Shown one piece after another: positions 51,544 through 53,807 of a stretch of DNA of 64,000 nucleotides. The position numbers and the translations under genes are program-made. The notes under the pieces are model-generated. The model was not told the origin of the DNA. It made no database searches and saw nothing but the letters and a program-made list of their open reading frames with translations. The stretch's first letter is position 1; the number at the start of each line of letters is the position of its first letter. Where the stretch lies: the NCBI RefSeq assembly GCF_056712565.1, contig NZ_CM160072.1. The stretch is one strand, 5' to 3'.

Positions 51544-53807
51544 ATGAAAATAACGACAGTCGGCGTATGCATAATTTGCGGAATTTTTCCGTTGCTGATT
51601 TTGCCCCAATTGCCTGGGACAGTAACCCTTGCGTTTCTGACTCTCTTCGCCTGTGTACTGGCATTTATCCCTGTTAAAACCGTCCGTTATATCGCGCTGA
51701 CGTTGCTGTTTTTCGTTTGGGGCATATTAGCAGCAAAGCAAATTTTGTGGGCAGGAGAAACCTTAACTGGCGCGACGCAGGATGCAATTGTTGAGATCAT
51801 TGCTACTGACGGCATGACCACTCATTACGGTCAAATTACTCATCTACAAGGTCGACGTATATTCCCTGCGCCAGGCCTCGTACTGTATGGCGAATATCTT
51901 CCGCAAGCGGTTTGTGCCGGACAAGTATGGTCAATGAAACTCAAAGTTCGTGCAGTTCATGGTCAACTTAATGATGGCGGCTTTGATAGCCAGCGTTATG
52001 CCATTGCCCAGCATCAACCGCTCACCGGCCGTTTTCTGCAGGCAAGTGTCATTGAACCGAATTGTAGCCTGCGTGCACAGTATCTGGCGTCACTACAAAC
52101 AACGCTGCAACCCTATATGTGGAACGCGGTTATTCTTGGATTAGGTATAGGGGAACGGTTATCCGTCCCCAAAGAAATCAAAAATATCATGCGTGATACT
52201 GGAACGGCGCATTTAATGGCGATATCAGGATTGCACATCGCTTTTGCGGCGTTGCTGGCTGCAGGACTCATTCGCGGTGGGCAAGTTTTTCTGCCTGGGT
52301 GCTGGATCCACTGGCAAATGCCATTAATTGGTGGAATCTGCTGTGCTGCTTTTTATGCCTGGCTTACGGGAATGCAACCTCCTGCATTGCGTACCGTGGT
52401 GGCGCTTGCCATTTGGGGAATGCTTAAGTTAAGTGGACGACAATGGAGTGGCTGGGATGTATGGATATGTTGTCTGGCGGCAATTTTGCTGATGGATCCT
52501 GTTGCCATTCTCTCGCAAAGTTTATGGCTATCTGCCGCTGCGGTCGCGGCACTGATTTTTTGGTATCAGTGGTTTCCCTGTCCGGAGTGGCAGCTGCCGC
52601 CGGTATTGCGCGCGGTTGTTTCCCTCATCCATCTGCAACTGGGAATCACCCTCCTGCTTATGCCCGTGCAAATTGTCATATTTCATGGCATTAGTCTGAC
52701 CTCGTTTATTGCAAATCTTTTTGCAATTCCCTTGGTGACATTTATCACGGTTCCGTTGATTCTCGCCGCGATGGTTGTGCATTTAAGCGGGCCGTTTATT
52801 CTGGAACAAGGGTTATGGTTTCTTGCCGACCGGTCTTTGGCTTTACTTTTCTGGGGGTTAAAGAGTTTGCCGGAAGGGTGGATCAACATTGCTGAACGTT
52901 GGCAATGGCTAACATTTTCCCCATGGTTCTTACTGGTGGTATGGCGATTAAACGCCTGGCGAACGTTGCCAGCAATGTGTGTGGCTGTAGGCTTGCTGAT
53001 GTGCTTGCCGCTGTGGCAAAAACCTCGACCTGACGAGTGGCAAGTGTACATGCTTGATGTCGGGCAAGGGCTGGCAATGGTCATTGCGCGAAACGGCAAA
53101 GCGATTCTCTATGACACGGGACTGGCCTGGCCCGAAGGGGATAGTGGGCAACAACTGATTATCCCCTGGCTCCACTGGCATAATCTTGAACCGGAAGGCG
53201 TTATTTTGAGTCATGAACATCTGGATCACCGGGGAGGGCTGGACTCAATATTGCACACATGGCCGATGTTATGGATCCGAAGTCCGTTAAACTGGGAACA
53301 TCATCAGCCCTGTGTGCGTGGCGAAGCGTGGCAATGGCAAGGATTGCGTTTCAGCGCGCACTGGCCTTTACAAGGTAGCAACGATAAAGGAAATAACCAT
53401 TCCTGTGTGGTTAAGATTGATGACGGGACGAATAGCATTCTTCTAACCGGTGATATTGAAGCCCCCGCTGAACAAAAGATGCTAAGCCGTTACTGGCAGC
53501 AAATGCAGGCAACATTACTTCAGGTACCTCACCATGGCAGTAATACCTCATCATCGTTGCCATTATTCAGCGAGTGAATGGAAAAGTGGCACTCGCATCG
53601 GCATCGCGCTATAACGCATGGCGACTGCCCTCAAGCAAAGTTAAACATCGCTATCAACAACAGGGCTATAAGTGGCTTGATACTCCACATCAGGGTCAAA
53701 TAACGGTCAATTTTTCAGCGCAAGGCTGGCGGATTAGCAGCCTCAGAGAGCAAATTTTACCTCGTTGGTATCATCAGTGGTTTGGCGTGCCAGTGGATAA
53801 CGGGTAG
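51544..53807 (+). pseudogene. ycaI: ComEC-family inner-membrane protein YcaI, apparent frameshift near 53561..53570
   Basis: track ORF 51514..53577 (687 aa) ends ...SSSLPLFSE*; track ORF 53574..53807 in another frame encodes the expected ComEC C-terminus (NGKVALASASRYNAWRLPS...); restoring one T in the T-run joins them into a product of about 754 aa from Met 51544. Confidence 0.7.

Follow-up and report, generated by a model that had tools for sequence, protein, structure and literature searches.

In the window, as we call the whole 64,000-nucleotide stretch of DNA analysed here, ycaI lies on the + strand between ihfB (51054-51338) and msbA (53844-55592), and its coding sequence falls into two overlapping frames. 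Is this arrangement a genuine pseudogene, an error of sequencing or assembly, or a gene that still works after the break?

Reading frames and the lesion in ycaI

A preliminary description of the sequence had assigned the gene to the ComEC family, which was borne out by the match of its product to PF03772 (Competence, residues 201-467, E=1.7e-53, 182 bits versus a cut-off of 23 in Pfam) and by alignment to K-12 ycaI (b0913; 2,265 nt, 754 aa). It had also described a stop at 53577 and a continuation in another frame from 53574, and both frames were reproduced. The upstream frame, as read from the ORF list, ends with ...HHGSNTSSSLPLFSE (in longer form ...PHHGSNTSSSLPLFSE) and is 687 aa long when counted from TTG 51514 and 677 aa from ATG 51544, the latter being preceded by GGGAGGG. 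The downstream ORF extends from GTG 53574 to 53807 and encodes 77 aa, (V/M)NGKVALASASRYNAWRLPSSKVKHRYQQQGYKWLDTPHQGQITVNF...VPVDNG*, which, the start codon aside, agree at every position with residues 679-754 of the intact protein found in the same lineage. The features of the locus are as follows.

51544..53807, + strand: ycaI as a whole, probable pseudogene of a ComEC/Rec2 homologue, 2,264 nt versus 2,265 nt in the intact gene
51544..53577, + strand: 5' frame of ycaI, 677 aa, comprising 674 native residues, aberrant F-S-E and a stop (from translation and Pfam)
53565..53566, + strand: deletion site, where the ancestral AA (codon 674 TTA / codon 675 ATT) is reduced to one A at 53565
53575..53577, + strand: premature TGA resulting from the frameshift, read directly and overlapping GTG 53574-53576 as GTGA
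53574..53807, + strand: out-of-frame 3' remnant corresponding to YcaI residues 679-754, the C-terminal MBL strands and helices (from identity to the intact tail)

Intact alleles, including those of K-12 and of ATCC 11775 from the same lineage, were found by alignment to read CCATTAATTCAG, encoding Pro673-Leu674-Ile675-Gln676, and the window reads CCATTATTCAG at the same site, so that the lesion can be written in short form as TTAATT to TTATT. The alignment confirmed the proposed 1-bp deletion splitting ycaI, and a one-base repair leads, as had been expected, to a product from Met 51544 of the 754 aa known for K-12 YcaI. K-12 ycaI, with CCATTAATTCAG at this site, is one continuous 754-aa frame, indicating that the frames of the window had not been misread. 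The assumed T-run has to be given up: what was lost is one A from an AA pair, a T-run is absent, and the window sequence is unreachable from the intact allele by any single T deletion, which shows the T-run reading to be wrong. A homopolymer origin was rejected on the same alignment, in which AA becomes A within TTAATT, and the peptide of the suggested repair, ...SLPFIQRV..., is replaced by ...SLPLIQRV... within the ancestral ...SLPLIQRVNGK.... Since the deletion is a fixed difference from thousands of orthologues, a chance test is inapplicable to it.

The frame is disrupted relative to intact orthologues, and public annotation agrees. The label 'ycaI, ComEC family protein, frameshifted' is given by PGAP with an identical span in ZJ3920, APEC E16002, ExPEC XM and SF-468, and the 'frameshifted' flag was present on ycaI in all five of the carriers inspected. 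An intact 754-aa ycaI is annotated in ATCC 11775, PA45B and K-12, and the intact product WP_000705727.1 (754 aa) is the PGAP ycaI product in ATCC 11775, PA45B, CEA212U, PE144 and SF-166. This protein and the window agree at every one of residues 1-674, and the out-of-frame tail of the window agrees with it throughout residues 679-754. Intact E. coli YcaI (b0913, NP_415433.4) shares the locus ihfB-ycaI-msbA-lpxK and the start codon with the window; it differs in having AA at codons 674/675 and ending at residue 754, whereas the window allele lacks one A and ends at 677. A report of the ycaI frameshift was not found in the literature searched on ycaI, but the RefSeq annotation already records it, and the pseudogene status of ycaI is thereby already known from public annotation and is an ordinary case. 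For gene callers the consequence is that 51544-53807 should be treated as one pseudogene and not as two genes.

Carriers and origin of the deletion

A base dropped by sequencing or assembly from a strain that truly has AA would account for the two frames without any mutation, and single-base indels are the commonest assembly error; the preliminary description had already suspected one. The site TTAATT, however, is without a homopolymer, and the deletion recurs elsewhere. A 61-base query centred on the deletion site had an exact counterpart in 18 of about 5,420 complete E. coli genomes, and the lower-ranked matches listed all span 62 bases, one more than the query. This number is a lower bound, because a carrier with an extra SNP inside the 61-mer escapes an exact match. 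The reciprocal intact 62-mer has an exact match in 5,030 complete E. coli genomes, and 391 more genomes differ slightly from it, consisting of the 18 carriers and of genomes, O157:H7 and O55:H7 among them, in which the 62-base span is kept.

The avian carriers include APEC O1 (turkey), APEC E16002, E18006, E18055 and 16-1068 (chicken) and ExPEC XM (duck, China), the other animal carriers include PU-1 (swine) and Z0117EC0054 (dog), and the human carriers include ZJ3920 (China), HS13-1, SF-468 (USA), MS15052 and FDAARGOS_1298. The carrier records include China, South Korea and the USA, and laboratories and sequencing platforms differ among them. The SF-468 assembly is based on PacBio reads, with MiSeq reads used for correction (PMC4645194). 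The same deletion is thus present in 18 independent complete assemblies, among them the PacBio/MiSeq assembly of SF-468 and the older APEC O1 reference, and it travels with a linked SNP and occupies a single branch of the local haplotype tree. With no homopolymer at the site and 18 independently sequenced carriers, sequencing error is excluded for practical purposes, and we give it very little credence. The lesion is real and heritable in related genomes. Between the two possibilities that had been put forward, the genuine pseudogene stands and the homopolymer sequencing error falls, given the absence of a homopolymer and the 18 independent genomes; the pseudogene had, however, been ascribed to this strain, and the deletion marks a whole sublineage of 18 complete genomes.

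The gene itself is present in 5,425 of the 5,426 complete E. coli genomes. Four matches to the ycaI segment (window 53380-53820 and 53535-53595) are on plasmid-labelled records, and some genomes have two copies; such records might represent F-prime-like plasmids, or else replicons that were mislabelled or misassembled.

Local haplotypes were compared over window 40000-64000 (24 kb). The deletion is present in every one of the 17 best matches at full length (24,001 bases), of which 16 are uninterrupted and one is in two pieces; the matches ranked next are one base longer, at 24,002 bases, and have an intact ycaI. SF-468, the reference genome of the ST95 fimH-1 sublineage, carries the deletion, and the references of three other ST95 sublineages (SF-166, SF-088 and SF-173) have intact ycaI. 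When seven sequences were compared over the 24 kb, the deletion was found to co-segregate with 52732 T, and 47137 T was common to the carriers and the intact CEA212U and PE144. CEA212U and PE144 therefore appear from these variants to be the sister group of the carriers, with PA45B and SF-166 outside. The carriers differ among themselves at 50093, 51021, 52359, 56089 and 58698: 56089 T and 58698 A occur in both the window and SF-468, and private changes are found in ExPEC XM (51021 and 52359), in SF-468 (50093) and in the window (49214).

This nested SNP pattern, drawn from a 24-kb region of seven sequences, fits a single origin followed by vertical inheritance. A single mutation event would have occurred in the ancestor of one ST95 sublineage, that of O1/O2:K1:H7 avian and human extraintestinal strains, and the deletion would have been passed on vertically as this sublineage, including APEC O1 and SF-468 fimH-1, spread. 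We conclude that the lesion is very probably a genuine, recent and vertically inherited 1-bp frameshift and that ycaI is a lineage-specific pseudogene. ST95 is a pandemic extraintestinal pathogen common to poultry and humans, and TTAATT to TTATT provides a simple single-base marker for one of its sublineages.

Two of the variable positions deserve separate mention. Position 49214 of the window, in the cmk-rpsA intergenic region (~49112-49220), is C, and it is A in the six compared ST95-type genomes and in APEC E18055. Position 58698 falls in kdsB codon 208, which is ATA (Ile) in the window and SF-468 and ATG (Met) in the other five ST95-type genomes; PGAP correspondingly lists KdsB of SF-468 as WP_000011606.1 instead of WP_000011611.1, and this non-synonymous change marks a subgroup among the deletion carriers.

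Domain content and predicted consequences

Translation from ATG 51544 would give 674 native residues followed by F-S-E and TGA 53575-53577, and in this product the N-terminal region, the transmembrane channel and every metal-binding motif recognised in the MBL domain would be retained. In terms of domains, the 5' frame covers a weakly matching OB/DUF4131 region, the Competence channel and the greater part of the MBL domain. The N-terminal OB-fold (PF13567, DUF4131) scores 27.5-28.1 bits, below the cut-off of 31.6 bits, and the alignment with 9vc9 starts at residue 82. PF00753 (Lactamase_B) matches residues 505-670 of the window product at profile positions 2-177 of 196, whereas the intact protein is matched over profile positions 2-193 of 196; a complete C-terminal MBL nuclease domain is accordingly found in the ancestral gene and not in the window allele. 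The H-x-H-x-D-H motif has been described for ComEC, and the nuclease activity of ComEC has been assigned to the MBL domain (PMC12455585). The corresponding motifs of the window are listed below.

53212..53229, + strand: HEHLDH metal-binding motif, residues 557-562, retained (from motif position)
53527..53541, + strand: PHHGS motif, residues 662-666, retained and, among the conserved catalytic motifs ahead of the break, the one nearest to it (from alignment with four solved ComEC homologues)

The TGD motif (635-637) also lies upstream of the break, and H557 (domain H67), H562 (domain H72), D637 and PHHGS are invariant with respect to the four solved homologues. In the solved ComEC/Rec2 proteins (9vc9, 9vcb, 9vcf and 30bt, and the nuclease domain 9ic4) the domain order is the same as in YcaI, Competence and then MBL with HxHxDH-type and PHHGS motifs, but the final quarter of the nuclease domain is missing in the window allele. 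Intact YcaI was aligned with 9vc9 over residues 82-747 (E=4e-78), the crystallised nuclease domain 9ic4 could be matched to its C-terminal domain as far as residue 732, and the tail itself aligns to the solved structures 9vc9, 9vcb, 9vcf, 30bt and 9ic4. The final 80 residues, roughly one quarter of the nuclease domain, are missing from the window product, and the lost tail contains V678, N691, P696, Q705, T714 and G718, which are invariant in YcaI and the four solved homologues.

To place the break in the fold, we used an AlphaFold2 model of the intact MBL domain built on a six-sequence alignment (pTM 0.84, mean pLDDT 77). After the break, the model has strands at domain residues 192-195, 220-223, 229-235 and 238-245 and full helices at 208-216 and 251-257, and a third helix spans the break. 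With four strands and two to three helices missing from the MBL fold, we infer loss of function: on the model, the truncated MBL domain most likely cannot fold, its nuclease activity would be lost, and the function of the whole YcaI protein is probably lost as well.

The fate of the gene was further considered in terms of selection. When K-12 was compared with the intact ATCC 11775 allele, which the inspected ST95-type relatives share unchanged, dN/dS was 0.17 over the whole gene and 0.16 over codons 674-754, indicating that ycaI, including the lost tail, is maintained by purifying selection in E. coli. The window allele is in this respect a further case of a cryptic competence gene lost in E. 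coli despite species-level purifying selection. Among the compared carriers, other differences in ycaI are synonymous (Leu397 TTG/CTG, and Ala272 in ExPEC XM), with the exception of APEC O1. Because only synonymous changes are found elsewhere in the gene in these carriers, the pattern fits a recent inactivation with decay just starting. In APEC O1 a further 5 bp are deleted from a TG repeat (TGTGT within CCTGTGTGG) at the equivalent of window 53404-53408, upstream of the shared deletion, and this second lesion leads to a stop at about residue 621, before TGD and PHHGS. Restoration of the frame by the two deletions together (5 bp and 1 bp, making 6 bp) was considered and rejected, as the shifted frame stops at once (…NNHSG*). 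The 5-bp lesion may have arisen by secondary decay of the pseudogene, or it may be a mistake in this older assembly.

A split ycaI could nevertheless be functional, either through the 677-aa product acting as a channel only or through the 77-aa tail being reinitiated at GTG and reassembled with it. The premature stop and the in-frame GTG overlap as GTGA (53574-53577). Such a stop-start overlap is an arrangement that allows termination-reinitiation in bacteria, and low-level reinitiation of the 77-aa tail is therefore conceivable. All metal-binding motifs are upstream of the break, and the compared carriers except APEC O1 have no further disabling mutation. Some ComEC homologues are without any MBL domain, and Helicobacter pylori ComEC works without it (PMC12455585), by analogy with which a channel-only function is conceivable. 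Against reinitiation, a Shine-Dalgarno-like sequence is absent before the GTG, where the upstream bases are CATTATTCAGCGA; against a split protein, the predicted helix that the break interrupts lies centrally in the MBL sandwich, and the model would require four strands to be supplied in trans. The second lesion of APEC O1 is what relaxed selection would be expected to produce, and the absence of further decay from the other carriers compared fits a young lineage equally well. We thus regard a split yet functional ycaI as unlikely, and that the frameshift made a working ComEC variant, as a channel only or in two pieces via reinitiation at GTGA, as a shade less likely again. If such a variant were real, its fixation in a successful avian and human ExPEC sublineage would mean selection on DNA uptake or on DNA as a nutrient.

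Two overlapping frames are also what programmed recoding would leave, by which -1 ribosomal frameshifting or transcriptional slippage would restore full-length YcaI, and they are all that speaks for it. Against it, 5,030 genomes encode YcaI in one continuous frame. The only interval permissive for such a shift, from the last stop of the downstream frame to the new stop, is 53544-53574, and it contains no X-XXY-YYZ slippery heptamer and no A/T run long enough for slippage. Ribosomal and transcriptional slippage were rejected for want of a slippery sequence in this interval, and of all the readings we find this one the hardest to credit. An inactivating frameshift thus remains the preferred reading of the locus.

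Neighbouring sequences and related systems

The essential msbA lies downstream of ycaI. The protein accessions of msbA, lpxK and ihfB are the same in carriers and non-carriers, and the downstream msbA is, as far as its sequence goes, unaffected. One candidate promoter lies in the region.

53782..53810, + strand: promoter-like site TTGGCG-17-TAGAAT (from consensus match), between the break and the msbA ATG at 53844

This site gives a weak hint that the premature stop need not affect msbA, but the promoter scan of the region returned 1 site versus 3.3 expected from shuffled sequence, which is not significant. The existence of 18 sequenced isolates with the deletion speaks more strongly for continued expression of the essential msbA. 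Upstream of ycaI, the search for a CRP-S competence-regulon site yielded a 2-mismatch match at 51408-51423, which is at chance frequency (42 in the window versus 43 expected).

ComEC of naturally competent species takes up DNA; E. coli YcaI is a homologue of it by sequence and is not known to do so. In PMC1635313 the gene is taken to be the H. influenzae rec2 orthologue. Natural plasmid transformation was unaffected in ycaI knockouts of E. coli (PMC6135910, PMC3306417), and a ycaI nonsense mutant had lower artificial transformation efficiency in one recent study (PMC12844161). The phenotypes of the carriers, if determined, could bear on the role of YcaI in E. coli. In pigeon-restricted Salmonella Typhimurium DT2, ycaI appears in the table of altered coding sequences of strain 94-213 (PMC3760250), which resembles the window in that a species-conserved gene is disrupted in one clone. 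The species and the lesion are different, however, and the same table does not count ycaI as a pseudogene in the remaining three DT2 isolates, which makes the alteration in 94-213 look strain-specific, whereas the lesion of the window is common to a whole sublineage.

Elsewhere in the window, a type I-F CRISPR-Cas system is located between clpA and tRNA-Ser/infA, with cas genes at 11774-15578 and arrays at ~6731-7058 and 16119-16507. Its csy2 is divided between ORFs 13078-13293 and 13360-14001, and the cas6f ORF stops early, at 15392 versus ~15578 expected; both genes are PGAP 'internal stop' pseudogenes in the near-identical APEC E18055. With csy2 and cas6f disrupted, the CRISPR system of the carrier lineage looks to be inactivated as well. 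In ftsK, a 78-bp stretch (window 26003-26080) is missing from APEC E18055; it lies in a repeat region rich in CAGCAGCC/CAACAGCC-type units, and the difference is a length polymorphism of the FtsK linker repeat.
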